Virus record (IMG/VR): IMGVR_UViG_3300029692_000015
Reading direction: 5' to 3' (one strand)
From: a virus
DNA: 43,062 nucleotides
The translations under genes and the position numbers were made by a program. Positions 4,529 to 40,845 of this stretch are shown here, piece after piece. The notes below the pieces were generated by a model, which was given only the letters and a program-made list of their open reading frames with translations, was not told the origin of the DNA and ran no database searches. Numbering within the stretch: the stretch's first letter is position 1; every line of letters starts with the position of its first letter.

Positions 4529-4604
4529 TGGCATTCCCGGCAGGGCTCAAACCTGCAGCCTGCGGTTTTGGAGACCGCTGTTCCATCACTTGAACTACGG
4601 GAAT
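4529..4604 (-). tRNA. tRNA-Trp (anticodon CCA), CCA end encoded
   Basis: Hand-folded 76-nt cloverleaf: acceptor ATTCCCG/CGGGAAT, D arm GTTC-AAGTGATG-GAAC, anticodon arm GCGGT-CTCCAAA-ACCGC, T arm GCAGG-TTTGAGC-CCTGC, then G-CCA. The T-loop has T instead of C at position 56. Confidence 0.8.
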
Positions 4605-4896: not shown

Positions 4897-5034
4897 AGCC
4901 GTTAACCGGATTCGAACCGGCACCATCAAGTCTGTTATGTGCGCATTGGTTAAGTGCGCAGTGATGTCCGAGATGTGTCACCAGCGTTGTCCCGCCTTAA
5001 ATGGGCGGCGCTCTGCCAATTGAGCTATAACGGC
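4897..5034 (-). ncRNA. Atypical 138-nt tRNA-like RNA with a 70-nt insertion between anticodon arm and T arm
   Basis: Canonical parts: acceptor GCCGTTA/TAACGGC, D arm GCTC-AATTGGCA-GAGC, anticodon arm CCGCC-CATTTAA-GGCGG (A where U33 is expected), T arm GCCGG-TTCGAAT-CCGGT. The 70 nt between them contain a TGCGCA-CTTAACCAA-TGCGCA hairpin. No encoded CCA. Confidence 0.5.
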
Positions 5035-5224: not shown

Positions 5225-5746
5225 TCAGGGCGGGTTTTGTGCGGTTTGTGCAACATTGCCGAAGTTGTCCCAAATCTCTGCCAGATAGATGCTGCCCCAC
5301 TTGATGTAGATGGAAACCTGGTTTTCTTCCGAAAGCCCCAGCTCCTCGCAGACCTCGCGCTGCTTTTTGTTCTTGACGTAGTACAGGCACAGGCAGTCAG
5401 CCTGTTTTTTGCTGGATTTGCTTGCCGTGATACAGTACGCTCGCCGGGTGGCCTCAATGCGCAGCAGGAAAAGGTCTGTTTCCATCTGCTGCAGACGTCG
5501 CTGCTCGTCCGTGATATCCGTTGCAGCAAGCCCGACCTTGTCACCGGCACCACCGCCGCCGGGCATCCCGTTCAGGCTTGGGGTGGTCTTTTCGGCAACT
5601 TCTCGGATGCGCTGGATCTTCTGTTTTTGGGCTTCAACCGCCGCAGCCATATCCCGGCACTGCTGGAACCACGCCTTTACTTCGTGGTAGTCCACGCCGG
5701 CGCTCGGCTTTGGCTGCTCGCTTTCAGGTGTCCATGTGCGGGTCAT
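5225..5746 (-). CDS. Putative late-gene transcriptional regulator (sigma-70 region-4-like HTH; ArpU/RinA/DUF1492-like position)
   Basis: 173-aa ORF. The C-terminal segment ADCLCLYYVKNKKQREVCEELGLSEENQVSIYIKWG resembles a region-4 HTH. Located upstream of the packaging genes. Confidence 0.5.
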   Translation of the reverse strand: MTRTWTPESEQPKPSAGVDYHEVKAWFQQCRDMAAAVEAQKQKIQRIREVAEKTTPSLNGMPGGGGAGDKVGLAATDITDEQRRLQQMETDLFLLRIEATRRAYCITASKSSKKQADCLCLYYVKNKKQREVCEELGLSEENQVSIYIKWGSIYLAEIWDNFGNVAQTAQNPP

Positions 5747-5990
5747 TGTCTCCCTCCTCTATTTCCCATCCGATAAGATCGCAGACGCAAAATCTTGTCT
5801 TTTCGCACCAGTGAATGACAAACCGCTCCGGTAAAGATGATTTTGGGATAGCGGTAGTCGATTGAAGATTGCAAGAATCATCTTTCATATCTTTGATTGC
5901 CCAAGCAACAGATCTTGTGACGCTTGTCTTTTCCTTGATTTCCGCTCCGCAGCATCTGCACTTGAAAACGCCTGTCATTGTTTCATCCAT
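5724..5990 (-). CDS. Hypothetical Cys-containing small protein
   Basis: Likely start is MDETMTGVFKCRCCG at 5990, overlapping the RusA stop by 8 nt. The longer track ORF N-terminus overlaps rusA. Confidence 0.5.
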   Translation of the reverse strand: MDETMTGVFKCRCCGAEIKEKTSVTRSVAWAIKDMKDDSCNLQSTTAIPKSSLPERFVIHWCEKTRFCVCDLIGWEIEEGDNDPHMDT

Positions 5991-10010: not shown

Positions 10011-11081
10011 TCAGTCTTTGCTTACGTCAATCCCCGTGATTTCTCTGAAAATCGCCGCGTCGAAGTTCGGCAAACTGAGGATAACGTTTCGATCAGCGGC
10101 ACTAAGCCCCGCCCACCACTTCCAGGCGTTGTCCGCTGTGGTGCGCTCCTTCAAATAACCGCCAGTCGTTTCAGCTTCAGGGTGCGCTGCCTTTTCTTCA
10201 TCGGTCATAGCAGACAGATAAACGTATTCAAGCTGGCAATCGTCAATATCGTTCAGCAAACGCCGGGCACGGCAGTTAAACCACCGCTCAAACGTCCAGT
10301 CGGTAGGCTTGTTGAACATATAGATTTTGGGCGATACCGTATTGAAACAGCCATTGGAAAAGGATGTAGCATTCCAGTCGCCGCTGTTCCGGTTGCCGCT
10401 GTTCCGGTTGCCGCTGTTCCAGTCGCCGCTGTTCCGGTTGCCGCTGTTCCGGTTGCCGCTGTTCCAGTTGCCGCTGTTCTGGTTGCCGCTGTTCCAGTCG
10501 CCGCTGTTCCGGTTGCCGCTGTTCCAGTTGCCGCTGTTCCGGTTGCCGCTGTTCCAGTTGCCGCTGTTCCAGTCGCCGCTGTTCTGGTCGCCGCTGTTCC
10601 GGTTGCCGCTGTTCTGGTCGCCGCTGTTCCGGTTGCCGCTGTTCCGGTTGCCGCTGTTCCAGTCGCCGCTGTTCCGGTTGCCGCTGTTCCAGTCGCCGCT
10701 GTTCCGGTCGCCGCTGTTCCAGTCGCCGCTGTTCTGGTCGCCGCTGTTCCAGTCGCCGCTGTTCCAACGTCCAGTGCAAGCCTTTCCAGTGTTCACGATC
10801 TCAAGGACTTCAGCCCAAGGGATTTCCCGCACAATTTCCAGCTTGTTCGTTGCACACTTATACTCATCCTCTGCAACCGTACCGTGGGCGATCACTTCAG
10901 CGACGTGGTTGTTCGGGTCAAAATCGTAATAACGGAAACAGTCGGCGGCATTCTTGCAGAAGTGCATACCCACATTGCAGACAGACGGACTTACAAATTC
11001 TTCAAATGTTCCCGGGCAAGAATACTGTTTGCCGCGACACGTCCAGTCAGAATTAAAAACTTTATATCCTTTTACGCTCAT
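10011..11081 (-). CDS. Repeat protein: globular N-domain + 26 tandem NSG[D/N][W/R/Q] pentapeptides + C-domain
   Basis: 356-aa ORF with RBS AAAGGAGGAGATAAACA upstream of the ATG. Central region is WNSGDWNSGDQNSGDW... Confidence 0.8.
   Translation of the reverse strand: MSVKGYKVFNSDWTCRGKQYSCPGTFEEFVSPSVCNVGMHFCKNAADCFRYYDFDPNNHVAEVIAHGTVAEDEYKCATNKLEIVREIPWAEVLEIVNTGKACTGRWNSGDWNSGDQNSGDWNSGDRNSGDWNSGNRNSGDWNSGNRNSGNRNSGDQNSGNRNSGDQNSGDWNSGNWNSGNRNSGNWNSGNRNSGDWNSGNQNSGNWNSGNRNSGNRNSGDWNSGNRNSGNRNSGDWNATSFSNGCFNTVSPKIYMFNKPTDWTFERWFNCRARRLLNDIDDCQLEYVYLSAMTDEEKAAHPEAETTGGYLKERTTADNAWKWWAGLSAADRNVILSLPNFDAAIFREITGIDVSKD
10374..10763. repeat. Tandem repeat, 26 x 15 bp (plus strand ccRgtYgccgctgtt-type unit)
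   Basis: Read directly: exactly 390 bp. Units differ only at three nucleotide positions, which encode D/N and W/R/Q. Confidence 0.95.
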
Positions 11082-24200: not shown

Positions 24201-24233
24201 AGCTTGATTAGAGCTTGATTAGAGCTTGCTTAC
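24201..24233. repeat. Tandem repeat 3 x 11 bp (agcttgattag, third copy degenerate)
   Basis: Read directly: agcttgattag agcttgattag agcttgcttac. Confidence 0.8.
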
Positions 24234-24238
24234 TGTAA

Positions 24239-24283
24239 GCAAAAAAAGAAAAGCGCCCACACAGAGAAGGACTGTGCGGGCGC
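24239..24283 (-). terminator. Rho-independent terminator
   Basis: 12-bp stem GCGCCCACACAG/CTGTGCGGGCGC (one mismatch), followed on the minus strand by TTTTCTTTTTTTG. Confidence 0.7.
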
Positions 24284-24325
24284 TCGATGTTTGCACCCAA
24301 TAGGTGTAAAAAATTCAAAAAAGTC

Positions 24326-24354
24326 TTGACTTTTGCACTCAATGGGTGTATATT
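24326..24354 (+). promoter_or_regulatory. Sigma-70 promoter (TTGACT-17 nt-TATATT) of the plus-strand two-gene operon
   Basis: -35 at 24326-24331 and -10 at 24349-24354. Confidence 0.7.
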
Positions 24355-24402
24355 ATAGACAGTAGAGGAAATCAAAATCGCACAAAAAAGGAGATAACTA
24401 CT

Positions 24403-24750
24403 ATGACCAGCTTTGAGACTAAAAAGAAGATCGTTCTTGCAGGCAACAGCCGCATTTTTAACGACTGGGCTGCCCACTCTACTATTACGATGGACGAGTT
24501 TATCTCGGCGCTTCAGTGGCTGTGCGAGGATGCACTGGACAAAAACGGCAAGATTACCCGGGAAATCGCGCTTGCTCCCGACCGCATCGTGAAGCTGCGC
24601 CGCGTCAACGATGGTCTGGGCATGACCGCTTTTTATAAGTATCCCCGCGACAACGGCGGCGATGGAGAGCTGGGTTCTCTCTGGAGCGGTGAGAAGTTCC
24701 CTGATGGCTTTGTGCGCAAAATCAGCCTGTCCGTGAAAGACCGCATTTGA
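24403..24750 (+). CDS. Hypothetical protein (115 aa), first gene of the plus-strand operon
   Basis: Start MTSFETKKK after AAAAGGAGATAACTACT. No motif recognised. Confidence 0.65.
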   Translation: MTSFETKKKIVLAGNSRIFNDWAAHSTITMDEFISALQWLCEDALDKNGKITREIALAPDRIVKLRRVNDGLGMTAFYKYPRDNGGDGELGSLWSGEKFPDGFVRKISLSVKDRI

Positions 24751-24766
24751 AAGGGGGCGAACAAAG

Positions 24767-25363
24767 ATGGCAACTGCAAAAGAAATTGGAATCGGAATAA
24801 AGAATGCGCGCCTTACCGTTGGTATCACGCAAGCAGAGTTAGCTCGTAGACTTGGTGTTACACCTCAAGCCATCAGCCAATATGAACGAGGAGAAAAAAA
24901 GCCTAAAATTGAAACAATCAAAAAAATAGCAGATGCATTGGGTGTAAGTTGGTTTCAACTATCTCATCTTGATGATTTGGTTGCTACTTCTGAGGAAAGA
25001 GTTTTGGACAAAGAGGAAGTATACCAAAGTATAGCAGTTGATTATACTACCGCTGAACTTTTTGTTATGGCTTCTGAACCGGAAGCATCCCGTGTGGCGT
25101 TCCTCAACAACGTGGCCATGACCATCCCGGAAGATGCTTCCGGCTGCATCGACATGGACGCCGAAAAGAAGCGGCTGTCCGTCATCTGGGGTCTGGCGCA
25201 CCTGTCCATGCGGGAGCTGATCTCCCGCACCGGAATGTCGCAGACCGCTTTTGCAAAATGCGCGGGCATTCCGCTGCGCACGGTGCAGAACTGGTGTGCC
25301 GGAAGCCGGGACTGCCCGGCATATGTCAGATTTTTGCTGGCGGAGCACTACAAGCTGCTGTAA
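24767..25363 (+). CDS. Double-HTH (XRE-type) regulator / antitoxin-like protein
   Basis: HTH 1: IGIKNARLTVGITQAELARRLGVTPQAISQYERGEKKP. HTH 2: LSMRELISRTGMSQTAFAKCAGIPLRTVQNWCAGSRDCP. Confidence 0.8.
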   Translation: MATAKEIGIGIKNARLTVGITQAELARRLGVTPQAISQYERGEKKPKIETIKKIADALGVSWFQLSHLDDLVATSEERVLDKEEVYQSIAVDYTTAELFVMASEPEASRVAFLNNVAMTIPEDASGCIDMDAEKKRLSVIWGLAHLSMRELISRTGMSQTAFAKCAGIPLRTVQNWCAGSRDCPAYVRFLLAEHYKLL

Positions 25364-25365
25364 AA

Positions 25366-25439
25366 CAAAAAATCCCCCACTTTGCCTACAAAGTACCCCG
25401 CGTGGCACGCAGGGCTTCGGCAAAGCAGGGGATTTTTTG
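25366..25439 (+). terminator. Long-stem rho-independent terminator
   Basis: AATCCCC...CTTTGCC pairs with GGCAAAG...GGGGATT and is followed by TTTTTT. The flanking A-run allows bidirectional use. Confidence 0.7.
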
Positions 25440-25498: not shown

Positions 25499-25675
25499 TC
25501 AATCTGGGTCTCCTAAGTGCATAGGGATATAAAACGGAATAAACCGCTTCCAGCTGTGGCAGTGTCTAGGCCAGAACCGCACGATGTACCAATCGCCAAA
25601 CAAGTGAAAAGTGGTGTAGTATTTTGCGATTCTTGACACTCGTTCTTCTTTTGTATTGCACATAAGCATCACCAT
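25499..25675 (-). CDS. Small aromatic/His-rich ORF (58 aa) with structured leader
   Basis: ATG at 25675 follows GGGAGACGATTTTAT (MVMLMCNTKEERVSRIAKYYTTFHLFGDWYIVRFWPRHCHSWKRFIPFYIPMHLGDPD). The RBS lies in the 3' arm of a 9-bp hairpin (25684-25692 / 25717-25725). Confidence 0.35.
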   Translation of the reverse strand: MVMLMCNTKEERVSRIAKYYTTFHLFGDWYIVRFWPRHCHSWKRFIPFYIPMHLGDPD

Positions 25676-25811
25676 ATAAAATCGTCTCCCGCATGGTACG
25701 CACTGCGAGTAGGCGGGCGGGAGACTAAATTTCGTAAGCTGTGCGCTTGTGCTGGCAGAAATCTTTAGGCCAGACCACACCAGCAATTCATTAGGCGAAT
25801 TGTCTGTAAAT

Positions 25812-25820
25812 ATTATACCA
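25812..25820 (-). promoter_or_regulatory. Extended -10 promoter (TGgTATAAT)
   Basis: The minus strand reads attgTGgTATAATattt about 135 nt upstream of the small ORF. Confidence 0.45.
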
Positions 25821-25830
25821 CAATCCGTGC

Positions 25831-25868
25831 AAAAAGAAAAGCGGCAGACCCGAAAGCCTGCCGCTTTT
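25831..25868. terminator. Bidirectional rho-independent terminator
   Basis: Stem GCGGCAG/CTGCCGC flanked by AAAAAGAAAA and TTTT. Confidence 0.65.
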
Positions 25869-25919
25869 GAATTGCATGAGCAGAAACCCAAAGCTAATTC
25901 GTTGCTCATGATTATTATA

Positions 25920-26153
25920 TCACACATTCAGCATTTTATCAATCTTTTTTAGCCTATTGCCGATTGATGTCCGACAATACGGCACACGCGCTGCAATATC
26001 AACTTGGCATAGCTGGTCAACGTACCGCAACCGGGCGATTTTCCGGTCATACCTCCCAAGCGGTGCACGTTTTATCACAGCTTTTATCTGTTCTGCATTA
26101 AGCCCTTGCAACGCTGGCGGAAAGACTATGCGAGCCGCCGCCACGGGCAGCAC
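25920..26153 (-). CDS. Sigma-70 region-4-like HTH protein fragment (GTG start, no RBS)
   Basis: LNAEQIKAVIKRAPLGRYDRKIARLRYVDQLCQVDIAARVPYCRTSIGNRLKKIDKML is region-4-like. Overlaps the upstream ORF by 56 nt in a frame offset by 1. Confidence 0.5.
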   Translation of the reverse strand: MLPVAAARIVFPPALQGLNAEQIKAVIKRAPLGRYDRKIARLRYVDQLCQVDIAARVPYCRTSIGNRLKKIDKMLNV

Positions 26154-26632: not shown

Positions 26633-26890
26633 TTACTCTCCTCTCTCTTTTTCGAGGTCTTCTATGCGGTGGTTTGCCACCTTGATCTGCTCTTCCAGCA
26701 CTGGCACGCGCTGGGCAAAGTTGTTGTGCGCCCGGACTTCGCGGGTCAGCTCTTCCAGCTTGGTTTCAGTGACGGCCTGCTGCTTGTCCAACTTGGCGTC
26801 CATGCTCTGTGCGGTGCGGTTATTGGAGACGATCGCGCCGATCAGGCTCAGACCGCCGGTGATGATTGCCACGATGATTGATTCGCTCAT
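26633..26890 (-). CDS. Lysis-associated membrane protein (N-terminal TM + coiled coil)
   Basis: IIVAIITGGLSLIGAIV followed by heptad-like charged repeats. ATGA-coupled to the endolysin stop. Confidence 0.55.
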   Translation of the reverse strand: MSESIIVAIITGGLSLIGAIVSNNRTAQSMDAKLDKQQAVTETKLEELTREVRAHNNFAQRVPVLEEQIKVANHRIEDLEKERGE

Positions 26891-27564
26891 GCGCCCTCCC
26901 GAAGACGGGTCAGACCCTTCTTTGCAATGATTTTAGCGTAGTCCTTGTAGGGCACAGACAAGTCCACGCCGGAAATCTTGCCCGGGATCGCGTCCACAAC
27001 ACCGGGAATCTTGCCCTTGCTGGTGTACTGCCACAGCCCGAATTTCCATTCCGGCGCGGGCTTTTTGCTGCGGTAGGCTGCAAGCCACACGTCATACGGC
27101 TTGAGCGCCGCGCCGGTCATGTACATGTTATCACGGCCAAAGTACAGCCCGGTGTATAGCATGGCGTAAAAGCCCCAGCGCTCCACCGTGCCCAGCGCAT
27201 GAGCGGCAATGTTCGTCAGGGTCTGCTTGTCCAGCGGAGCTTGCACATACTTGTCCTCAATGTCCACCGCCACCGGCAGCTGCACTGTCTTGCCGGTCAG
27301 CACCTTGCGCAGCAGGGCAAGTTCTGCGTCAGCTTCTTCCGTGTTGACCGCCTTGCAGTAGTAGTACACGCCACAGGGGATGCCCAGCCGCTGGCACTCG
27401 CGGTAGTTGCGCTCAAAGGTGGGGTCGATGTACGGCTTGCTGGGCGCGTCTTTCGCGCTGTTGCCCAGCGCCCGCAGCATCACGCCGGAGACAAGGCCGC
27501 TTGCCTTGACATTGTCCCAGTCGATGTTACCCTGCCAGCGGGAAACGTCCATGATAGGTCTCAT
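26887..27564 (-). CDS. Endolysin, glycoside hydrolase family 25 muramidase
   Basis: MDVSRWQGNIDWDNVKASG...GVYYY...VAVDIE is a GH25 signature. Start MRPIMDVS at 27564 follows AAGGAGCAGAGT. Confidence 0.85.
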   Translation of the reverse strand: MRPIMDVSRWQGNIDWDNVKASGLVSGVMLRALGNSAKDAPSKPYIDPTFERNYRECQRLGIPCGVYYYCKAVNTEEADAELALLRKVLTGKTVQLPVAVDIEDKYVQAPLDKQTLTNIAAHALGTVERWGFYAMLYTGLYFGRDNMYMTGAALKPYDVWLAAYRSKKPAPEWKFGLWQYTSKGKIPGVVDAIPGKISGVDLSVPYKDYAKIIAKKGLTRLREGA

Positions 27565-27574
27565 ACTCTGCTCC

Positions 27575-27727
27575 TTAATACTTTTCGCCGGTAATCTCTT
27601 CATACTCCGCTGCGGTCAGGCGCTGGGGCTTGCGCTGCACAAGGATGCGTAGCATGGCCTTAGACCAGAGGCCCGCCTCATACTCGTCTTTTGCTTTGCC
27701 AAAGATCGCGCTGTGCTTATCACTCAT
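27575..27727 (-). CDS. XkdX-like small phage protein (50 aa)
   Basis: MSDKHSAIFGKAKDEYEAGLWSKAMLRILVQRKPQRLTAAEYEEITGEKY. The ...AEEYxEITGExY ending is typical of the XkdX family. Confidence 0.6.
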   Translation of the reverse strand: MSDKHSAIFGKAKDEYEAGLWSKAMLRILVQRKPQRLTAAEYEEITGEKY

Positions 27728-27884
27728 GGCTCATGCCCTCCTTGTCTGCGGCCTCGTCCTCAATAGGCACATCGGCCAGAATGCACAGGAAATCCACCAT
27801 AGACGCGATCTGTGCCAAATCCGCGTCCCGGTTCTCGTTTTCGGCGGCGGTCTTGATGCCGCCAGTGTTGCGAACAATTTTCAT
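27720..27884 (-). CDS. Small acidic ORF (54 aa) translationally coupled to the RT stop
   Basis: ATG at 27884 follows GGAGGGGATAACGAC. ATGA overlap with the RT stop at 27881-27883. Confidence 0.45.
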   Translation of the reverse strand: MKIVRNTGGIKTAAENENRDADLAQIASMVDFLCILADVPIEDEAADKEGMSHE

Positions 27885-28945
27885 GTCGTTATCCCCTCCA
27901 GCAGAGTTTTAACGTATTGATCCATGCGCTGCAGCAGCTGCTGCGAGTTGCCTTTAGCGGCATGGGCTTTCCATGATCCATACTGCTCATACAGGGCAGA
28001 TACCGGTTTCTCTCCTGCCTTGATGAGCTGGGCAAGCCGAAACAGGCGCTTGCGCTCGGCCTTGACGTTCTGCGGGTCAACGGTCATAACGACCTTGCCC
28101 GCCGGGGTCAGGCGGTAGATGAAACCTAGAAAACGGAATCCATCCTTTAGTCTGACGATCTTGGTCTTGGTCGGGTGCAGCTCCATGCCATCGGCAGCGT
28201 ACCGGGCGCGGATCGCCTCCCGCCACTCCTCAAGCTGCGCCTTGTCGTGGTGGATGATGAGGCTATCATCCATAAAACGGACGTACTTTTTCGCCCGCAG
28301 GCGCTCCTTGATGTAGTGATCTATGGGGTCGGGCACCGAGATCCCGGCAAGCTGCACCATCTGGCTGCCCGGATTATAACCGGCCTCGCCGGTATATTGA
28401 CGATCCAGCACCTCACGCACGCGGTTATGCACACTTGGCGGCAGATGCCGCTCAAAGCAGCGGTTTGCCACGTCATGGGGCATCGTGTCGTAATAGTGCC
28501 GGATATCTACCAACAGCACATAGCCATCAGCGCCGTGCTGCCGGTATTCGCGCTCCATCATGAGCTTGACCTGCTCACGCGCCCAGTCCGTACCTTTGCC
28601 GGTCTGACAGGCCGCATTTTGCCGGATGAAACTCCGTGTCATTGCTGGATAAACAGCATTGTCGTTGAGAGAGCGCTGGTATACCCTATCCCGAAAGCCG
28701 TTCGCAACCGCTGTGCGGGGCTTGGGATAGGTGATTCTAACTTTGATTGTTGGCCGTGCCTTGTATGTACCTGTCGCGAGCTCCTTTTGGAGTTTCAGGA
28801 TCTCGTCCATCCGAAACAGGTGAAACCGTCCAACGCTTGCCTTGCGGCACACGCCTTTGGCGCACTTGCCCTCGGAATTATACAGGGCATCGAACCCGAT
28901 TATTATTTCTTCTTCTTGCACTGATTTTTTCAGCTCTCCTCGCAA
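27881..28945 (-). CDS. DGR-type reverse transcriptase (start codon uncertain: TTG 28945 or GTG 28921)
   Basis: YVRFMDDSLI (YxDD box), GYNPGSQMVQLAG (GxxxSQ-like) and LLVDIRHYYDTM. Located immediately 3' of the template repeat. Confidence 0.9.
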   Translation of the reverse strand: MRGELKKSVQEEEIIIGFDALYNSEGKCAKGVCRKASVGRFHLFRMDEILKLQKELATGTYKARPTIKVRITYPKPRTAVANGFRDRVYQRSLNDNAVYPAMTRSFIRQNAACQTGKGTDWAREQVKLMMEREYRQHGADGYVLLVDIRHYYDTMPHDVANRCFERHLPPSVHNRVREVLDRQYTGEAGYNPGSQMVQLAGISVPDPIDHYIKERLRAKKYVRFMDDSLIIHHDKAQLEEWREAIRARYAADGMELHPTKTKIVRLKDGFRFLGFIYRLTPAGKVVMTVDPQNVKAERKRLFRLAQLIKAGEKPVSALYEQYGSWKAHAAKGNSQQLLQRMDQYVKTLLEGITT

Positions 28946-29101
28946 GGATCTGCCGGGTGATAGCGGTCAACACCCCGCAGGGTGGCCACGTCCGGCTGAT
29001 ATTGTTCGTCTGCCAGAGGACAGACATGGCACTCGGCTCCTTGCACGGCAGTTTTTGCCCGGCCTCTGCTATGCAGGGGCTTTTGTGGGCGTGCTGCCGT
29101 C

Positions 29102-29225
29102 CAATCCGGGGCGCAGCGATTCGCGTTGATCGCGTTCCAGTTGTTGACGTTGCCGCTGGAGTTCACGTTGAAGGCATTGTAACCGTTGCCACGATTCGCA
29201 GAGCGCAGCCGCACATTGCGGCCCA
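29102..29225 (-). other. DGR template repeat (TR)
   Basis: 124-nt match to 29728-29851 at an offset of 626. All 17 mismatches are T on the plus strand, which is A on the transcribed minus strand. In the VR frame it is rich in AAC/AAT codons (RLRSANRGNGYNAFNVNSSGNVNNWNAINANRCAP). Confidence 0.9.
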
Positions 29226-29247
29226 TTAGCCTACAGCCATTTTTATG

Positions 29248-29658
29248 TCAAAGCGCTTTTGCACGCTTTGCATCACTCTCGTGCCAGTCCCGGCAGCGCT
29301 GCCGGATATCGCGCACAGTGTTGCCCCAGAAAGAGCACCGTTTGCCAGAAAGGTGGTAGCTTGCTTTAGCCATGTCTATCTCCGCCAAAAGGACGGTGCA
29401 CAGCCGGACGGCGTGCCTTTGAAGCTTAAAGCGCTCCTCTCTTTCGTTCGGTTTGTCTAGCCGGAGGTCATTTGCCCCGAAGATATCAAAAAATATCCGG
29501 TCTGCCGCAGCGCGTAGCTGGCCGGGAAGACTTGCGTCAATTTCGAGGTCAAACACTTTCGCGTTTTTGGTGATCTGTCTGGTATACAGTGCCAGCTCAC
29601 GCGCGTCAAGCGGCAGCGTGAATTTATTGTCCGGTATCTGGTCTTTGCGCATTGCCAT
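29248..29658 (-). CDS. avd: Accessory variability determinant (Avd)-like four-helix-bundle protein
   Basis: 136-aa basic helical ORF located exactly between the target gene and TR. The assignment rests on size and position; the sequence family was not verified. Confidence 0.7.
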   Translation of the reverse strand: MAMRKDQIPDNKFTLPLDARELALYTRQITKNAKVFDLEIDASLPGQLRAAADRIFFDIFGANDLRLDKPNEREERFKLQRHAVRLCTVLLAEIDMAKASYHLSGKRCSFWGNTVRDIRQRCRDWHESDAKRAKAL

Positions 29659-29677
29659 GGGATAGCACTCACTTTCT

Positions 29678-29701
29678 CACCGGGCAAGGGATTGCCCGGT
29701 G
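29678..29701. promoter_or_regulatory. GC-rich hairpin/cruciform (10-bp stem, 4-nt loop) just 3' of the VR-bearing gene
   Basis: CACCGGGCAA-ggga-TTGCCCGGTG begins 2 nt after the target stop codon. No T-tract follows on the minus strand. Confidence 0.7.
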
Positions 29702-29702
29702 A

Positions 29703-30986
29703 TTATTTAACAAGATTGGTCATTTCGCAAGCCGGGGCGCAGCGAAACGCGTTGACCGCGCCCCAGGTGCCGACGAGGCCGCTGGAGTTCACGCCGAAGG
29801 CATAGAAACCGTTGCCACGACTCGCAGAGCGCAGCCGCACATAGCGGCCCACAGTACGCTGTGCCAGATCGCGGGTGATGCGCAGCGGATAGATCTTCCA
29901 CAGAGCCTGCGGGGTCTTTGCGCCGGTGCGCTCTTTCCAATACGGCCAGTAGGTGCCCTCACCGGACACCTGCGGCGAGCAGTAGATCTCCTGCAGGGAG
30001 GGCAGGAAAACCTTGTCATAGGTCACCACAGCGCTGCCGTCATCGGTGACGGCGTTGCCGTAGGTCACGACCTTCACGCGGGTCAGGGCGGCCTTGAAGT
30101 CATCCGAGAAGCCCGCAAGGAAGCCGGGCACGGTGTCTGCCTGATCGGGCTTCATGTCCCACTCGTCCTGCGGATGCCACCATTCTTTTGCGGGTGCATC
30201 GCTGTTGAGGTACTGGCGGTATGCGGACTTATACCACCGGTTGTCGCCGTATCCAACCGGATGCAAGCCGTTTAGGTTGCCGTTGGGCTTTGCGAGGAAC
30301 GTGCCGAGATTCGTGCCGGTGCTTCCAGCAGAGACGTTGCAGGTCTCCAGCAGCTCAGACTTCTGCTGATCCTTGTAGACGTACACCTTCCAGTTGGTAG
30401 GCGCGGCGTCCGGTGCGTTGTAGAAGCCGGTCAGGCGTGCACCTGCGGGGGCGTTCTTGGTCAGCGTGAACTGATAGACGGTGCCGTTCTTGACGTTGGT
30501 GCCCCAGTCCAGACCCATCTTGACGTTGTATGTACCAGCCACCAGACCGGCCTCGGGCACAACGAAAAACGCCTGATACGCGGAAAACTGGATATCTTCC
30601 AGAGATGCGTAGTGCATCTGCAGCACCATTGCGGGTGCGGTGGTGCCGGTCTCACCCTCGGCGATATCGTCCGTCTTTACCACGTCCCACGGGCAATCGT
30701 AGACTTTGCCGTCCTTGCCGGTGTAGGTGTTGACAAGCTGGGTGCCCACCGGGAAAACCGCCGGTGCGTTACCAGCAGCCACCACGGCCTTGATACCGTT
30801 ATAGTCCATCTCCTCCACAACGCTGGTCTGTGCCCGTGCCAACACGCCCAGCGAACTGGACATGCCCAGCAGGGCAGCGGTCATCTGGTCAAGCTTTTTG
30901 CCGTTGTCTTTTGCGGTCTTGTCCAGATAGATAGGCTCCACCACCTCAGTGGCAGGTGCCTGCGTGCTAATTTCGTTTTCAGCCAT
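29703..30986 (-). CDS. DGR target protein (tail-fibre-region receptor-binding candidate with C-terminal variable C-type-lectin-like region)
   Basis: 427-aa ORF whose C-terminus ...GRYVRLRSASRGNGFYAFGVNSSGLVGTWGAVNAFRCAPACE contains the VR. Lies downstream of the tail fibre / Tal genes. Confidence 0.85.
   Translation of the reverse strand: MAENEISTQAPATEVVEPIYLDKTAKDNGKKLDQMTAALLGMSSSLGVLARAQTSVVEEMDYNGIKAVVAAGNAPAVFPVGTQLVNTYTGKDGKVYDCPWDVVKTDDIAEGETGTTAPAMVLQMHYASLEDIQFSAYQAFFVVPEAGLVAGTYNVKMGLDWGTNVKNGTVYQFTLTKNAPAGARLTGFYNAPDAAPTNWKVYVYKDQQKSELLETCNVSAGSTGTNLGTFLAKPNGNLNGLHPVGYGDNRWYKSAYRQYLNSDAPAKEWWHPQDEWDMKPDQADTVPGFLAGFSDDFKAALTRVKVVTYGNAVTDDGSAVVTYDKVFLPSLQEIYCSPQVSGEGTYWPYWKERTGAKTPQALWKIYPLRITRDLAQRTVGRYVRLRSASRGNGFYAFGVNSSGLVGTWGAVNAFRCAPACEMTNLVK
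29728..29851 (-). other. DGR variable repeat (VR)
   Basis: Counterpart of TR. Carries G, C or A at the 17 positions where TR has plus-strand T. Confidence 0.9.
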
Positions 30987-30998
30987 GTGTTACTCCTT

Positions 30999-31556
30999 TC
31001 AGGATTTGCGGTATTTCATGCAGACTTTGCCGTCTACCACGACAAATCCACAGGATTCGAGGGCTGCGGTGCGCGTATCCAGCGCTTGCTCTGCCTGTTC
31101 CGCGCGGGTGGTTTCGGCGGTGATGGCAGCGTCCAAGCGCTGCTCCTCGCCTTTGGCGCGGGATGCTTCAGCGGCAATCCCGTCTGCGTTCGCCTGTTCA
31201 GCCGCCTTTGCCCGCTCAGTTTCCTCCGTGATTTTAGTGGATAGGGCGCTTTCGGCGGCTTGTGCGCGCTCGACCTCAGCCGCGATGTTGTCGGCGTTGG
31301 TTTTTTCCGCTGTTTCCGCGCGGGAAATCTCCGATGCAAGGTCATTCCTTACGCCCTGAATCGCGTCACCGACAGCCTTCGCATCCGCAGCCTTGCCGGA
31401 GAGGGAGAGGGTGGGGTCGATGGCTTTCTGGATGTTTTCGCCTGCCGTGTTTGCGAACTGCTCCACATACTCGCCCATCTGGGCGAGATCCTCGCGCACC
31501 TCGGATGCCATGACGGCTTTGCGGATGCCGTCAATCACTTCTTTAAACGGTTTCAT
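30999..31556 (-). CDS. Coiled-coil tail fibre protein
   Basis: Start MKPFKEVIDGI after GGAGGCAGACG. Contains GKAADAKAVGDAI and long Ala/Glu-rich repeats (AEKTNADNIAAEVERAQAAESAL...). Confidence 0.6.
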   Translation of the reverse strand: MKPFKEVIDGIRKAVMASEVREDLAQMGEYVEQFANTAGENIQKAIDPTLSLSGKAADAKAVGDAIQGVRNDLASEISRAETAEKTNADNIAAEVERAQAAESALSTKITEETERAKAAEQANADGIAAEASRAKGEEQRLDAAITAETTRAEQAEQALDTRTAALESCGFVVVDGKVCMKYRKS

Positions 31557-33276
31557 CGTCTGCCTCCATCGTTTGCAGCGCATAAGACTGCGTATCAGAT
31601 GCGTACTCCTTGAGCGTGCGGCTCAGGTCATACGCGGTGGTTGCTTTGCGGGCGCTGAGCGCCTGCAGGTCGGAGATGCTTGAAAATTTTTTGCCAAATG
31701 TGAATACTTTTTTGTCAGGCTTGTTGTCCAGCGGCTCTACGAGCTTGTTGCAATTGATCCACACATCAATGCCATGGGGCGCGGAAATAATGTGGGTCAG
31801 CTTGCCAAAGGCGATGCGCTCCACGTCCACGCCTGCGTCCTTCAGGTCTACGGCTTTCACCGTGATGCCGTCCGCAAGGCGCAGATGCTTGCCCAGCTCT
31901 GTGTCTGCCGCGTCCTGCAGGGACTGCTGTGTGTTTGCCGTGCCGTCCAGCAAAAGATACCGGGTGATAAGGCCGTACAGCTGTTGCGCGGTCGTATCGT
32001 TGGCAGTGGCGGTCAGGGCGTTGGTGGTCTCCCACAAAAACCAGCCGCTTTTTTTCTTGCCGATGGCGATCACCCGGGTGACGATGTCCTCGGCCTTGAC
32101 ATAGCTGGTCAGGTCAAGCATGTTTGTGCCGAAGGCGATGCCCTGCACGTTGCGCTCGGTCGCGTCCTGTACATAGTCCAGATAGCGTGCTCTCTTGTTC
32201 AGACCGGGGAACAAGGGGTAAGGAATCGTTTCGTGCCGGGTTACCAGATAGCCGCCGTACACGTCCACAAGCTCGCTTTGCAGGATGTCCCACGTTTTTC
32301 CGTAGTTCTTGCCGTCGCCGAACTCGTGCAACTCCTCCACAAGCTGCGGGGTGTAGTCTGCGGACTTTTCCCCGTTGACGTACACGTTGACCGTGCCGTC
32401 TTTTTCCGTTTTGATGCTGTACGTTGTGGATTCGGTGTTCTTTTTGGCCACTTTAATGGTATTGTCGAACTTATAGGTTTCTATTGGCGTAGTGATGGAC
32501 GGGGTAACAATGGTCTGATCTGAATCGTAGGTCTTGCTGCCCTGAGAGATCGCGTTCCGGCGGAGGGTAAACTGGTTGTCTCCCGTGCGCCAGGCAAGGT
32601 ACTCCTTTCCGGTTACGATCTCGTTCAGCGGCCAGTTTTGTGCTGGTGGGGTCTGCACGTCCTCATAGTCGGAAAAAATATAGGAAAAATTCTCTTCAAG
32701 TCGGTTCCCGTTTTGGGAGTACAGACCCCATGTCTGGTAATAGTCGCCCTGCTCGTCCGGGCTGCTGGCGGCATAGTCCAGCTTCAGATAGCACTTTTCG
32801 GCTACCGGAACATACCGCTTTTGCTCCTCCACCGTGACGTTTCCGATGCGGAAGCTTTTATAGCTGTCGGTCAGGCTGGTGTGATTCTTGCAGAGAAAGT
32901 CCAGAAACTGCCGGATGGTCTCATCCTTGGCGGTGTAGGGTGGTACATCGGTGTCGTTGAGGTAGGCAAGCTCGCCCTCACAGTACACCTTCTGCCGCAG
33001 CAGAAAATCCTGCTCATGGCTCATGACCCTGCCTTGCCAGATCTCCTTACCGTCCTGCTCCACGGACACCACCGTTTTCAGCTTTTGCAGCGCGCTGTGC
33101 GCCACGTTGCCCAGCGGGATGGTAAATTCTAGACTTCCAGCCTTACCAAACTCTCGGGTCAGGGTGGGGCTGATCAGCTTTGTAGTCTCCAGCGCAGAGC
33201 CGGGCGCATAGATACAGACCCGGTTTTCCCAGCTGTCCACGCCGTTCTGCGTGCCGGCATAGATCTTGTAACTCAT
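31543..33276 (-). CDS. Tail-associated (Tal / prophage tail endopeptidase-like) baseplate protein
   Basis: 577 aa starting at MSYKIYAGTQ (ATGA overlap with the Dit stop). Positioned after Dit and the tape measure. Confidence 0.7.
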   Translation of the reverse strand: MSYKIYAGTQNGVDSWENRVCIYAPGSALETTKLISPTLTREFGKAGSLEFTIPLGNVAHSALQKLKTVVSVEQDGKEIWQGRVMSHEQDFLLRQKVYCEGELAYLNDTDVPPYTAKDETIRQFLDFLCKNHTSLTDSYKSFRIGNVTVEEQKRYVPVAEKCYLKLDYAASSPDEQGDYYQTWGLYSQNGNRLEENFSYIFSDYEDVQTPPAQNWPLNEIVTGKEYLAWRTGDNQFTLRRNAISQGSKTYDSDQTIVTPSITTPIETYKFDNTIKVAKKNTESTTYSIKTEKDGTVNVYVNGEKSADYTPQLVEELHEFGDGKNYGKTWDILQSELVDVYGGYLVTRHETIPYPLFPGLNKRARYLDYVQDATERNVQGIAFGTNMLDLTSYVKAEDIVTRVIAIGKKKSGWFLWETTNALTATANDTTAQQLYGLITRYLLLDGTANTQQSLQDAADTELGKHLRLADGITVKAVDLKDAGVDVERIAFGKLTHIISAPHGIDVWINCNKLVEPLDNKPDKKVFTFGKKFSSISDLQALSARKATTAYDLSRTLKEYASDTQSYALQTMEADDETV

Positions 33277-34010
33277 AAGCTTGCTCCCAGATATTTGATG
33301 GTGATGCTGCTCGCAGCGGTGGCGGTAAAGGTCAGGGTGACGTTTTCTCCGTCCGGGATATCCAGCCCCTCCAGATACTGCCACTCGGTCGTTTTGGCAA
33401 GCGTGCCAGCGGCGGTCTTGTTGACCTGAAACGACACATTTGCCTCGCTTTCGCCGCGCTGGAAGTAGACAGCCGCGGTGTGCGGTGCGCCGTAGATAAC
33501 CACATCCACCGGCGTATCGGCAGGCAGCGCAATGCTGCGGTAGTCTCGCAGAATGTCCGTTTCAAAGTTGATGTCATCCCACCGGATATCCTGTGTGCCG
33601 TCGTAGACGTTGTACTTGTACGGATTGCAACTGCCGGTGATGGTGACCGTAGCGGAGAGACGCTCCGGCACGAATTTGACGTGCCAGAGCCCCTCCCAGT
33701 ACCAGGAGGGATCATCATCAAAAACGCATTGCAGCCACTTGCCCTCAAGGGCATTGTGCAGGCGGCTTTGCAGTACCTTCCACAGTTTTTTCGGCGCGGT
33801 GCACAGCAGCTCCATGGTAATGGTGCGTTTTTTGTAGTGCACCTTGCCGTCCAGCGAGGTAGTAAGGTTGAGCAGCGTGTCAGAGCCGGGTATCTGCACA
33901 AGGGTCTCGTCCGGTTCAGGCTCGCCGATGTTCGGGCTGCCCACCTTCATGTACAGCCCCCACGTTGCAAGGGTGTCATAGTTGCCCAGCTTTGCGCTGT
34001 GGATTGCCAT
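33273..34010 (-). CDS. Distal tail protein (Dit)
   Basis: 245-aa ORF directly after the tape measure; canonical siphovirus order. Confidence 0.7.
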   Translation of the reverse strand: MAIHSAKLGNYDTLATWGLYMKVGSPNIGEPEPDETLVQIPGSDTLLNLTTSLDGKVHYKKRTITMELLCTAPKKLWKVLQSRLHNALEGKWLQCVFDDDPSWYWEGLWHVKFVPERLSATVTITGSCNPYKYNVYDGTQDIRWDDINFETDILRDYRSIALPADTPVDVVIYGAPHTAAVYFQRGESEANVSFQVNKTAAGTLAKTTEWQYLEGLDIPDGENVTLTFTATAASSITIKYLGASL

Positions 34011-36692
34011 TTAAACACCCCTTTCTGCCCGCAGGATATACACGCCCATGCTGGCATCCATGTTGGTCGCAAGGCGCGGTGTGAGCATATCGGCCACCTT
34101 CTCGCCGTCCATGACAAGCTGCCCGGTGCCGATATCCGGCAGATGCTCGTCCAGCAGATCGCGGATCTGCTGCAAAATGCCCAGCTGTGCATCCGTGCCG
34201 GTAGTCTTTTCCATGTAGCGGTGCTGCATGGCTGCCCGAGTGGAGAACTCGGTCAGGCTGTCGTACACGTCATGCCCGGCAAAGGGGCTTTCGTAGTGGC
34301 TTACAGCCTGCCCGCTGCTGCTCTTGCCCTTTCCAAACTTTGCAAACAATGCAGCGCCCAGCGCCACCACGCCTGCCACAATGGCGATGATCGCGGCAAC
34401 CTCCGGGTTCGAGATGATCAGGCTGCCAACCTTTGCGATCAGTCCGCCTGCGCCCTGCGCAAGCGTGCCCAGACTGCCCATGCTCCCGGCAAGGCCTGCG
34501 ATTTTGGTGCCCGCGTTGACGTCAAAGTTGCCCATGCTCTTGCCCATGGTGCCCAGCACGCCCATGATCTTGCTTCCGACGTCGGAAACGTTGATGCCCA
34601 GCTCCTGAAACACTTTACTCAAGCCCTTAACGTCCGTTGTAACGCCGTCTGCATCTGCTTTGATTCCGTTGGACATGATCTGCTTAAAAGCGTTGAACGC
34701 CTCGTTCAGACCGCCGCCGGAATAAGCCTCGTTGATGGCTTCCAGCGCCTTGCTTGCCCAGTCGGACAGGACTTCGCGCTGCTCCTGTGACACCTCGCCC
34801 CACATTACGTTGACGATATCCAGCCCAAGCGCTGCCCAGTCCTGATTTTTCAGGTCGGTATACAGGTTCTTGCCGATCTTAAAAATACCGCTGTTAAACT
34901 GCTGCTGTGCCTTGCTCAGGTTCTCTTCAATGCGCTTTTGGGTGGCCTTGATGCTCTTGTCGATGTTCTGCGCGGTCTCTGTCACCTTATCCTGCACGCC
35001 GTCAACGTAGCTGATGACCTTGGTGTAGGTTTGCCTCACGCCGTCCACGATGCGCTCGCCGGTCTCGGTGGCGGTGGTCTTGATGTGCTGGCTGCCGTCC
35101 GCGTAGGTTTCCACGGCCTGCTGCGTGGTGGTGGTGATGCCGTTGAAGGTCTTTTCTGCAATGGTGGTCAGGGTGCCAAGCAGGGTCTTGGACATATCGG
35201 CGTAGACCTTTTTGGTCGTGGTGCTTATCTTGCCGTTCGTGTCCGTAACTTTCTTGGTCACAAGCGTATAGGTGGTAGCAACGCCGTTGACCATCTCTTT
35301 GCCGGTCTCGGTGGTGGTCTCGGTCACGCGGTCTTTGATTTTGCCCGCTGCGTCCTTTACCTTCTCCTGCAGGGTTTCAACGCTCGTTGTCACAGCGCCC
35401 AGCGCATTCTGTGCGGTGGTGGTTGCGGTGTGCGACACGGACGCTATGACGGTTTCGGTCTTGGATTTTGCGCCGCTGCTCTTGCCGGAGGAACTGGAAG
35501 GGCTTGTGACGATGGAACTTCCGCCGCTCGCGGCCGCTGCTTCTGCTTGGCGCTCAGACCAGCTTTTATTGCTTACGCTTTTGCCGGAAAGCGCATTCTG
35601 CCGCAGCCGATTTCGGTTGCTTTGCTTTTGCTGATCCTCTCTGTAGTCCTCGTAGCTGTCGTAACCAGAATAAGCGTTTTTGTCCAGTGCCTTGTTCAGA
35701 TAGTAGCTTGCCTTATCCAGTGCACTAACAGCCGCGCTGCCAAGCTGCCCAAACTTTTTGATGATAGCACTGATGGGGTTATCCAGTTCAAGGATTGCAT
35801 TCCCGAGACCCTTCCAGCCGTCCTCCTTGTAGGCTTCCTGCGCTGCGACAACCATGTCGTTCATGTGGCCTATCACAACGCCGATGCCGGAAGAAAGGTC
35901 GCCGGTCATAAGTCCGGAAAGCTGGCTGACGTTATCCTTCAGGGTGGATATACGCCCGTTCATGGTCTGGCTCTGGGTGTCCATGGCGTTATAGTAACGC
36001 CCGCCCTCCTCGCTGGCGGCTATGAGCGCCTGCGAAAGAAGGTCGTAGCTGATGGTCATGTTCTGGACTTCCTGCACCGATTTGCCGGTGTAGTCTGCCA
36101 AGACCTGATAAATATTGATGCCCGCATAGGCAAACTGCTTGATGTCTATGGTTGCAGCTTTGCCCACGTTTGCGATCTGCTGCAGGTTTGCAGCCATGCG
36201 GGATAGTTCTGCGTTGCCGCCGCCAGTGGCAGAAACAGCATCGCCCAGTGCATTGATGACCTTGCGGGAATACGCGGCGTTTTCACCTGCGCTGATGAGC
36301 AACTGGTTTGCCTGCGTCAGAGATGCCACGTCAAACGGGGTGCGGGCTGCGTCCTCCTGAATGGCCTGCATGGCTTCCTGTGCGGCCTGTGCGCTGCCCA
36401 ACATATTGGTAAAGCCGGTGGTGTACTTTTCTATCTGGGCGTTATAAGAAATGCCCATCTCCACAAAGCCCTTTGCAAGGCCTACCGCTTTTGTCCCAAG
36501 CGAGGTAAGCATATTTGCAAGGACAGTCGCTTTTGCGCTGGCTGCTGCAAACTGGCTTGCCATGCCTGAAACGCCGCTCCCGGCGGTGTTTGCGCTGCGG
36601 TTCAGCGAGTTTGCAGCGCTTTGCGTCTCTTTTCTGGCCTGCTCGATGCCCTGCTCATACTCGGAGGTATCAAGCCCCAAAGTGGCCATCAA
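34011..36692 (-). CDS. Tail tape measure protein
   Basis: 893 aa, Ala/Gly/Ser-rich with hydrophobic C-terminal segments. Contains the TP901-type core LGDAVSATGGGNAELSRMAANLQQIANVGKATIDIKQF-like region. Confidence 0.9.
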   Translation of the reverse strand: MMATLGLDTSEYEQGIEQARKETQSAANSLNRSANTAGSGVSGMASQFAAASAKATVLANMLTSLGTKAVGLAKGFVEMGISYNAQIEKYTTGFTNMLGSAQAAQEAMQAIQEDAARTPFDVASLTQANQLLISAGENAAYSRKVINALGDAVSATGGGNAELSRMAANLQQIANVGKAATIDIKQFAYAGINIYQVLADYTGKSVQEVQNMTISYDLLSQALIAASEEGGRYYNAMDTQSQTMNGRISTLKDNVSQLSGLMTGDLSSGIGVVIGHMNDMVVAAQEAYKEDGWKGLGNAILELDNPISAIIKKFGQLGSAAVSALDKASYYLNKALDKNAYSGYDSYEDYREDQQKQSNRNRLRQNALSGKSVSNKSWSERQAEAAAASGGSSIVTSPSSSSGKSSGAKSKTETVIASVSHTATTTAQNALGAVTTSVETLQEKVKDAAGKIKDRVTETTTETGKEMVNGVATTYTLVTKKVTDTNGKISTTTKKVYADMSKTLLGTLTTIAEKTFNGITTTTQQAVETYADGSQHIKTTATETGERIVDGVRQTYTKVISYVDGVQDKVTETAQNIDKSIKATQKRIEENLSKAQQQFNSGIFKIGKNLYTDLKNQDWAALGLDIVNVMWGEVSQEQREVLSDWASKALEAINEAYSGGGLNEAFNAFKQIMSNGIKADADGVTTDVKGLSKVFQELGINVSDVGSKIMGVLGTMGKSMGNFDVNAGTKIAGLAGSMGSLGTLAQGAGGLIAKVGSLIISNPEVAAIIAIVAGVVALGAALFAKFGKGKSSSGQAVSHYESPFAGHDVYDSLTEFSTRAAMQHRYMEKTTGTDAQLGILQQIRDLLDEHLPDIGTGQLVMDGEKVADMLTPRLATNMDASMGVYILRAERGV

Positions 36693-40769: not shown

Positions 40770-40845
40770 TGGTGCCGCTTGCAGGAATCGAACCTGCAAC
40801 TACCCGGTTATGAGCCGGGAGCACTGCCAGTTGTGCGAAAACGGC
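40770..40845 (-). tRNA. tRNA with CAT anticodon (Met, or Ile2 if lysidinylated), CCA encoded
   Basis: Hand-folded 76 nt: acceptor GCCGTTT/AAGCGGC, D arm GCAC-AACTGGCA-GTGC, anticodon arm CCCGG-CTCATAA-CCGGG, T arm GCAGG-TTCGATT-CCTGC, then A-CCA. Confidence 0.85.

Follow-up and report, generated by a model that had tools for sequence, protein, structure and literature searches.

Evidence for a BPP-1-type diversity-generating retroelement with a DUF6273 target in a temperate phage, probably of Faecalibacterium

Diversity-generating retroelements (DGRs) are common in Faecalibacterium phages. The prophages Roos, Pioen, Lelie and CP11 have DGR targets with a DUF6273 domain and a variable repeat (VR) at the C-terminus of that domain (PMC11792537), and Toutatisvirus has DGR hotspots with DUF6273 targets, which some relatives keep even though they have no DGR (bioRxiv 10.1101/2024.10.15.618418). 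The prototype is the DGR of Bordetella phage BPP-1, arranged mtd-avd-TR-brt, where TR is the template repeat. Target recognition in BPP-1 needs a hairpin or cruciform with a GC-rich stem of 7–10 bp and a 4-nt loop, situated 4–34 bp from the VR, and a GRNA loop consensus reported for phage DGRs is sequence-critical there (PMC3240598). The BPP-1 DGR RNA also contains a "cPRT Stop", in which the spacer pairs with sequence preceding the TR to form a duplex that is accompanied by a stem-loop and by adenosines (bioRxiv 10.1101/2023.10.23.563531). Here we analyze the IMG/VR virus record IMGVR_UViG_3300029692_000015, a stretch of 43,062 nt that we call the window and to which coordinates refer unless a related locus is named. 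We consider it very probable that two repeats in the window are the TR and VR of a canonical BPP-1-type DGR and that this DGR belongs to the tail module of a siphovirus-like temperate phage, whose host is probably Faecalibacterium. Because DGRs with DUF6273 targets in Faecalibacterium phages have already been published, this is an ordinary DGR of a known kind, and what is new here is the phage lineage.

The locus shares with BPP-1 the order of its parts (a target with a C-terminal VR, then an avd-like gene, TR, spacer, and reverse transcriptase, RT), adenine-only mutagenesis at positions 1 and 2 of AAY codons, and a GC-rich VR 3′ end followed by a TR/VR difference (the initiation of mutagenic homing sequence, IMH, versus IMH*). 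In both systems the VR alone is followed by a GC-rich hairpin, whose stem has 8 bp and whose loop has 4 nt (PMC3240598), and in both the spacer forms a duplex with the region upstream of the TR that is followed by a stem-loop and adenosines, as in the cPRT Stop (bioRxiv 10.1101/2023.10.23.563531). Unlike that of BPP-1, the probable host here is a Gram-positive gut anaerobe. The DGRs of Faecalibacterium prophages and Toutatisvirus are closer in setting: the likely host genus is the same, the phages are temperate and tailed, the target is a DUF6273 protein with a C-terminal VR, VRs differ among cognate IMG/VR genomes, and DGR-less relatives keep the target. The window nevertheless belongs to a different phage lineage (RT identity to Lelie and Toutatis ~31–32%) and has one VR, not two. 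DGR diversification of a DUF6273 (C-lec-like) domain is also described for the "tentaclins" of the gut phages nd4/nd12 (PMC10743442), where the nd12 RT is 36.6% identical by tblastn; here, in contrast, DUF6273 is C-terminal, is preceded by a beta-rich domain and is not accompanied by Ig-like domains, and the DGR has one target rather than two. No megablast match to the DGR region was found among GenBank phages, and the closest GenBank record is MT835491, an unannotated faecal contig whose RT and target are 48.5% and 41.6% identical, respectively.

TR and VR form an ungapped direct repeat of 124 nt at an offset of 626 (Table 1), identical at 107/124 positions, and their homology ends sharply at either side. 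The recomputed alignment reproduced exactly the 17 mismatches and coordinates listed in an earlier note made from the sequence alone. Each mismatch is T on the plus strand of the TR, i.e., A on the coding (minus) strand, and the plus-strand replacements are G, C or A, as that note had said; on the coding strand these are 8 A>G, 6 A>T and 3 A>C changes. Among the 28 TR adenines 17 are changed and exactly 11 are unchanged (the note had about 11), and the probability that 17 mismatches all fall on 28 adenine sites out of 124 is 6.2e-14 (hypergeometric). A search pattern with N at the adenine sites matches twice in the window and in 0 of 100 shuffles. Neither an adenine-masked scan nor low-stringency BLAST found a second or remote VR in the window.

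In the VR frame, all 28 TR adenines lie at codon positions 1 or 2 (14 + 14), with 0 at position 3, and the codons that carry them are 12 AAY codons plus TAC, AGC, ATC and GAT. The earlier note described the variable sites as AAY codons hit at positions 1 and 2. The positions stand as described, but the codons changed between TR and VR include TAC (Tyr394), ATC (Ile411) and GAT (Asp419) in addition to nine AAY codons; the TR and VR peptides that it quoted are both correct. The VR encodes aa 380–420 of the 427-aa target.

One of the 17 differences behaves unlike the others. At 29105 in the TR, corresponding to 29731 in the VR, A in the TR is C in the VR (GAT>GCT), and this difference is constant in nearly all relatives. 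Residue 419 is Ala in 118/120 homologous proteins, and the pairing of CCCGAT in the TR with CCCGCT in the VR recurs in clades with 46–50% RT identity. Because the A/C difference is constant in nearly all loci and in these distant clades, the 29105 mismatch is a fixed marker of the boundary, placed directly 3′ of the GC-rich run, rather than a product of random mutagenesis, and it behaves as expected of an IMH/IMH* difference. The number of stochastic TR-to-VR changes is then 16, plus 1 fixed difference, so that the earlier note's view of all 17 as mutagenic outcomes holds for 16 of them. By analogy with BPP-1 (PMC3240598, PMC5758913), the 3′ end of the VR would have an IMH-like function.

The hairpin downstream of the VR begins 28 nt past the end of the TR/VR homology, is not followed by a T-run, and is present on the VR side only, being absent beside the TR. 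Distant relatives have CCGGCCGA-CACC-TCGGCCGG and GCCGCCCGA-CACC-TCGGGCGGC at the same distance, and in clades with 46–50% RT identity the stem is kept through compensatory changes. The combination described in PMC3240598, an IMH/IMH* difference with a GC-rich hairpin downstream, is therefore found here with the loop sequence as the sole departure.

The remaining parts of the cassette are in their canonical places. The minus-strand order is target-VR-hairpin-avd-TR-spacer-RT, and clades with 83%, 50% and 46–48% RT identity preserve both this order and the spacing. The RT can be aligned from end to end with the 328-aa RT of PDB 8ub7_A (E 1.4e-15), presumably the BPP-1 enzyme bRT, and contains an FMDD catalytic box and an NPGSQ motif (NxxSQ type). 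Its longest open reading frame (ORF) starts with TTG at 28945; the real start is likely GTG at 28921 (346 aa), as in gene calls from public assemblies. By tblastn, RTs of DGR phages of Faecalibacterium, Roseburia, Bacteroides and Bordetella match at 28–48% identity. The avd-like ORF lies in the canonical position, and both its position and its sequence are conserved in distant relatives.

Table 1. Features of the DGR and of its neighborhood in the window, with the evidence for each.
Feature	Coordinates	Strand	Evidence
Small genes and GH25 endolysin	26887–27603 (endolysin)	−	Pfam and PHROG
DGR reverse transcriptase	27881–28945	−	RVT_1 5e-14; PHROG 1423 1e-68
Spacer RNA between TR and RT, ~180 nt	28922–29101	−	RNAalifold, pair counts, low polymorphism
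Template repeat (TR), non-coding, intergenic	29102–29225	−	Repeat alignment; 28 adenines
5′ strand of TR-bracketing long-range RNA duplex	29228–29240	−	ATGGCTGTAGGCT; RNAalifold and pair counts
avd-like accessory gene (136 aa)	29248–29658	−	PHROG 3206 "Avd protein of DGR", E 1.4e-7
Hairpin/cruciform element	29680–29699	−	CCGGGCAA-TCCC-TTGCCCGG, 8-bp stem, 4-nt loop
IMH-like 3′ end of VR	29700–29744	−	GC-rich run CGCTGCGCCCCGG (29732–29744), fixed C at 29731, VR-specific sequence to hairpin
DGR target gene (427 aa)	29703–30986	−	Pfam DUF6273 aa 242–357; PHROG matches; VR at C-terminus
Variable repeat (VR)	29728–29851	−	Alignment; hypervariable protein columns; differing VRs in related contigs
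194-aa ORF	30999–31583	−	No assigned function
Tal-like/prophage-tail gene	31543–33384	−	Pfam and PHROG
Dit-like gene	33273–34010	−	PHROG tail family
Tape-measure gene	34011–36692	−	PHROG tail families

Related contigs provide a population in which the pattern can be followed. A first scan of IMG/VR with the window TR (N at adenines) returned two contigs and a scan with the consensus pattern 51 stretches; the low yield of the former is due to the GGTTAC of the window, in place of which most relatives carry GGCAAC. Scanning IMG/VR with the RT gave 69 loci, more than 50 of them at 98–100% RT identity, six at 83–84% and ten at 46–50%, and all have the layout VR, ~620–640 nt, TR, ~150–180 nt, RT. 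One consensus TR is shared by 26/48 close loci (the window and 47 relatives), and the window TR departs from it only by GGTTAC for GGCAAC. No two distinct contigs have the same VR among the 47 relatives whose TR and VR align without gaps. In 37/47 the VR differs from its own TR at adenines only (3–21 sites), and the remaining 10/47 are mostly loci with an altered TR. The same holds for seven ENA/Logan contigs with an identical Avd, whose VRs differ from the TR at adenines only, at 10–19 sites (7/7). Altogether, near-identical TRs are present in about 60 related public contigs.

Two of the related contigs, L126 and L128, carry the window's exact TR with different VRs, having 17 and 19 differences from it, all at adenines. 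Non-adenine variants of the TR (T at 29182) are also mirrored in the VR. Because contigs with exactly this TR have different VRs, this TR variant has been used recently. Judged by the diversity of the population, the DGR is evidently active in the lineage. The earlier note's interpretation, DGR mutagenic retrohoming, is borne out by the parts, by their order, and by the diversity of VRs in the population, including the contigs that share an identical TR.

Heterogeneity of the VR across samples is also what an assembly or consensus artefact might produce, for example a chimeric repeat assembled from a mixed population, and eleven related contigs have TRs with many adenine substitutions that could conceivably be TR/VR chimeras. 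Against this, an independent ENA assembly (L124, from ERZ28638885, sample SAMEA5814740) reproduces both the TR and the VR of the window exactly, 6 contigs from three sources encode a target protein identical to that of the window, and the flanks of TR and VR are unique, the longest exact run common to the two repeats being ≤21 nt. The recurrence of both repeats in L124 excludes an artefact for practical purposes, and we regard this explanation as extremely improbable compared with a genuine TR/VR pair.

The target protein shows the same pattern at the level of residues. Its N-terminus is disordered or helical, its middle domain is rich in beta structure, and its DUF6273 domain, at the C-terminus, ends in the VR; the gene follows closely on the tape-measure, Dit and Tal-like tail genes. 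The DUF6273 (PF19789) match has an E-value of 1.5e-10 and 41.6 bits against a cut-off of 23.5; there are more than 1400 homologues, and PF19789 is present in 240/240 of those listed. In an alignment of the window protein with 119 homologues at 91–97% identity (n = 120), entropy reaches 1.6–3.4 bits at aa 382, 389, 392, 394, 395, 398, 400, 404, 406, 407, 409, 411, 412 and 414, and averages 0.1 bit over residues 1–378. These high-entropy columns are exactly the TR codons that contain adenines, excepting Ser402 (AGC) and residue 419. Ser402 is invariant in 120/120 proteins though its AGC codon begins with a template adenine (window 29157), which is essentially never substituted; this invariance suggests strong selection or positional bias.

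An AlphaFold (AF2) model of the target was obtained from a diverse alignment to which 120 diverse homologues had been added (the 120 close ones alone gave a predicted local distance difference test score, pLDDT, of 36). It has a pLDDT of 85.8 and a predicted template modeling score of 0.83, with low confidence at residues 1–58 only. Foldseek searches with this model match DUF6273 phage proteins in BFVD (E 2e-25) and give one significant match in the PDB, the Thomasclavelia ramosa IgA peptidase 9qa6 (E 3e-6), whose N-terminal domain is annotated as DUF6273 (PMC12402451). Sequence searches of the PDB with the target profile likewise returned a weak IgA-protease match only. The N-terminal domain of this gut-bacterial IgA peptidase (9qa6) is the sole solved structure that resembles the module formed by DUF6273 and the VR (29706–30305, minus strand, aa 228–427). 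This module is a widespread C-terminal cassette: clustering at 50% leaves 1387 representatives of the C-terminal 200 aa, which for the most part form the C-terminal end of proteins 180–1568 aa long, behind N-terminal regions that vary widely in length.

We examined the DGR RNA by running RNAalifold on nine sequences from four clades and counting pairs. The predicted structure includes a long-range duplex that brackets the TR, in which 29228–29240 pairs with 29026–29038 (AGCCGAGTGCCAT) in the spacer. Two of its pairs have compensatory changes, and GTAGGCT on the strand upstream of the TR and GGAGCCGA on the spacer strand are invariant across clades. The spacer further contains a hairpin at 29062–29080, a stem-loop at 29008–29025 in which 6/7 pairs covary, and a conserved GAACAA at 29002–29007; it is the least polymorphic part of the cassette. 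In the predicted structure 94% of cells are paired, compared with 30–44% when partners are slid by 1–3 columns, and the covariation score is 0.435 compared with 0.02–0.10 in the slid controls. By covariation, then, this is a structured DGR RNA with a duplex across the TR, an adjacent stem-loop, and adenosines. A template:primer duplex between the 3′ flank of the TR and the spacer was also looked for by eye; the window has a 7-bp candidate, GACGGCAG with CTGCCGT, for which this inspection found no equivalent in the other clades.

The RNA bears directly on whether the TR might be coding. A 98-aa ORF (28930–29226, minus strand) opens with an ATG abutting the TR, which it reads in the frame of the VR, and gene callers annotate it in several public assemblies (L123–L128). 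These observations could be taken to mean that the TR sits in a real gene and that the repeats are an ordinary duplication, or gene-fragment paralogue, diverged by normal mutation. The mismatches do not have this form: all 17 fall on one base (P = 6e-14), and their spectrum is a mixture of G, T and C that is not dominated by transitions. The 98-aa ORF has no Pfam or PHROG match, and in relatives with 46–48% RT identity every TR-spanning frame closes after 47–59 codons. Furthermore, the region downstream of the TR, with its compensatory changes, is conserved as RNA structure and not as codons. On these grounds (single-base mismatches, an unmatched ORF, closed frames, and RNA covariation) we reject ordinary duplication and a coding TR, which together have only the slightest chance of being correct, in favor of a non-coding TR, and consider the ORF probably a recurrent annotation artefact. 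The earlier note had held that a TR translated as part of a real gene in relatives would be incompatible with its interpretation; the ORF is not kept in distant relatives and has no family match.

Several observations set the locus apart from BPP-1 or weigh against its assignment to a canonical BPP-1-type DGR. The sense-strand loop of the hairpin is TCCC (CACC in distant relatives) and not the GRNA reported for phage DGRs (PMC3240598). In the RT, FMDD takes the place of YMDD as the catalytic box; the 83–84% clade also has FMDD, more distant clades have YMDD, and RT similarity to BPP-1 is distant. The Avd assignment is a weak one, consisting of one PHROG match at 1.4e-7 with none in Pfam, NCBIfam or PDB sequence searches. 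No match to Mtd, in sequence or in whole-chain fold, was detected for the DUF6273 target, and whole-chain Foldseek recovered no Mtd, TvpA or other C-type lectin (CLec) DGR variable proteins. Finally, the current activity of this genome's own DGR is deduced from population diversity. We weigh these points against the parts and their order, the restriction of changes to adenines and their placement in codons, hypervariability in the population, transfer of non-adenine TR variants to the VR, the DNA hairpin, and the RNA structure, and we retain the DGR assignment.

Following the BPP-1 paradigm, diversification would proceed in four steps. An RNA comprising the 3′ end of avd, the TR and the spacer folds so as to bracket the TR, as covariation shows here. 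The RT and Avd would then copy the TR into cDNA, misincorporating opposite template adenines, as expected for the DGR family and from BPP-1. This cDNA would replace the 3′-terminal VR of the target gene, guided, if BPP-1 is a model, by the GC-rich IMH-like end and the VR-only hairpin, with the 3′ integration boundary falling within the GC-rich run, upstream of the fixed A/C difference. Because the adenines are all at codon positions 1 and 2, only about 15 residues of the binding surface of the C-terminal, putatively C-type-lectin-like DUF6273 domain would be randomized, AAY codons could give rise to no stops, and the scaffold would be preserved. By our own arithmetic the ceiling of the repertoire is 15^12 x 4^3 = ~8e15 protein variants. 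The likely role would be to retune receptor or ligand binding by a protein associated with the tail tip, presumably in adaptation to receptors.

The TR itself is not constant within the lineage. Across 53 near-identical cassettes, polymorphism affects 28/29 adenine sites of the TR, 5/95 of its non-adenine sites, and 0/47 adenines in the spacer. When the 11 heavily altered TRs are excluded, 13/29 adenine and 1/95 non-adenine sites are polymorphic, and 31/347 third codon positions of the RT. The variants are a mixture of G, T and C, often in adjacent doublets, are usually mirrored in the cognate VR, and are partly common to different samples (e.g., L020 and L022, and a TAC sub-lineage that includes the window). 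The window TR has itself lost one adenine (AAC>TAC at 29181, aa 394), a change common to this sub-lineage. The altered TRs are those of L010, L023, L029, L030, L033, L036, L040, L044, L047, L056 and L057 (at ~5721–5844 of each locus). Adenine substitutions in the TR are also present in L123, L127 and L129, and some TRs keep only 12–24/29 adenines. One explanation, which we offer tentatively and to which we give somewhat less than even weight, is that the TR is not immutable and loses adenines through a DGR-like process, either occasional homing of mutagenized cDNA into the TR or back-conversion from VR to TR, which would erode mutagenic capacity. Other possible sources of the polymorphism are relaxed constraint and, for the heavily altered copies, misassembly.

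Three close relatives have lost the cassette altogether. L001 (2572–3497), L002 (5296–7528) and L097 (1185–3414) are without precisely the segment corresponding to window 27885–29716, which comprises the hairpin, avd, TR, spacer and RT, and this state is a clean cassette indel. All three keep the target, and their VRs differ from the TR at adenines only, i.e., they carry a frozen VR; those of L001 and L002 also have the window-type GGTTAC. If TR adenines are indeed lost as suggested, a DGR would end either as an adenine-poor TR or by loss of the whole cassette with a frozen VR.

Such endpoints raise the question of whether the DGR of this genome is a relic, in which the TR/VR pattern records past retrohoming and the element is now inactive, silenced or decaying. 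The precise loss of avd, TR and RT from three loci that keep an adenine-diversified VR is consistent with this, as is the ongoing loss of TR adenines in the lineage, including the one at aa 394 in the window, and published Faecalibacterium prophage DGRs often have no read-level variation in culture (PMC11792537). In the window, however, intact ORFs are retained for the RT, avd and the target, the FMDD box, 28 adenines, hairpin and RNA elements are all present, and the different VRs of L126 and L128 beside the same TR imply recent use. A relic is thus unlikely, and an evidently active DGR is the reading that we prefer.

The wider genome fits a phage of this kind. The window is a siphovirus-like genome with a terminase, an SPP1-type portal, major head and tail proteins, an integrase and a helix-turn-helix (HTH) repressor, and the last two mark it as that of a temperate phage. 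An RT with 84% identity lies on a 105-kb contig of a Faecalibacterium metagenome-assembled genome, and the probable host is accordingly Faecalibacterium.

Other features of the window lie outside the DGR. An Rfam DUF3800-VIII RNA motif at 25371–25434 (minus strand) scores 82 bits against a gathering score of 40 and occupies the interval that separates a 142-aa ORF (minus strand) from the 3′ end of a plus-strand HTH (XRE/CI-like) repressor gene; its neighboring ORFs at 24208–24828 and 25499–25927 (both minus strand) have no match to DUF3800 or any other Pfam family. The phage has two tRNAs, at 4529–4604 and 40770–40845 (both minus strand), which are tRNA-Trp (CCA) and tRNA-Met (CAT), and a third Rfam tRNA match at 4897–5034 (minus strand; 138 nt, 48.6 bits) is not called by ARAGORN and may be an interrupted or degenerate tRNA. 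At 10011–11081 (minus strand) a 356-aa protein combines DUF7666 with multiple pentapeptide repeats (Pentapeptide_2), and its gene has a 15-nt DNA periodicity at ~10390–10690.

The lineage described here, a Faecalibacterium-type temperate phage, occurs abundantly in assemblies from the human gut and is missing from the phage records of GenBank. It provides a natural data set, in the form of dozens of near-identical cassettes whose VRs are independent, from which a residue-level map can be drawn of the positions on the DUF6273 binding surface that tolerate randomization. The RNA comparisons lend comparative support to the extension of the BPP-1 RNA architecture, a TR-bracketing duplex with a stem-loop, to DGRs of Firmicutes phages. 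Loss of TR adenines together with clean loss of the cassette may, in addition, offer a view of how DGRs decay.

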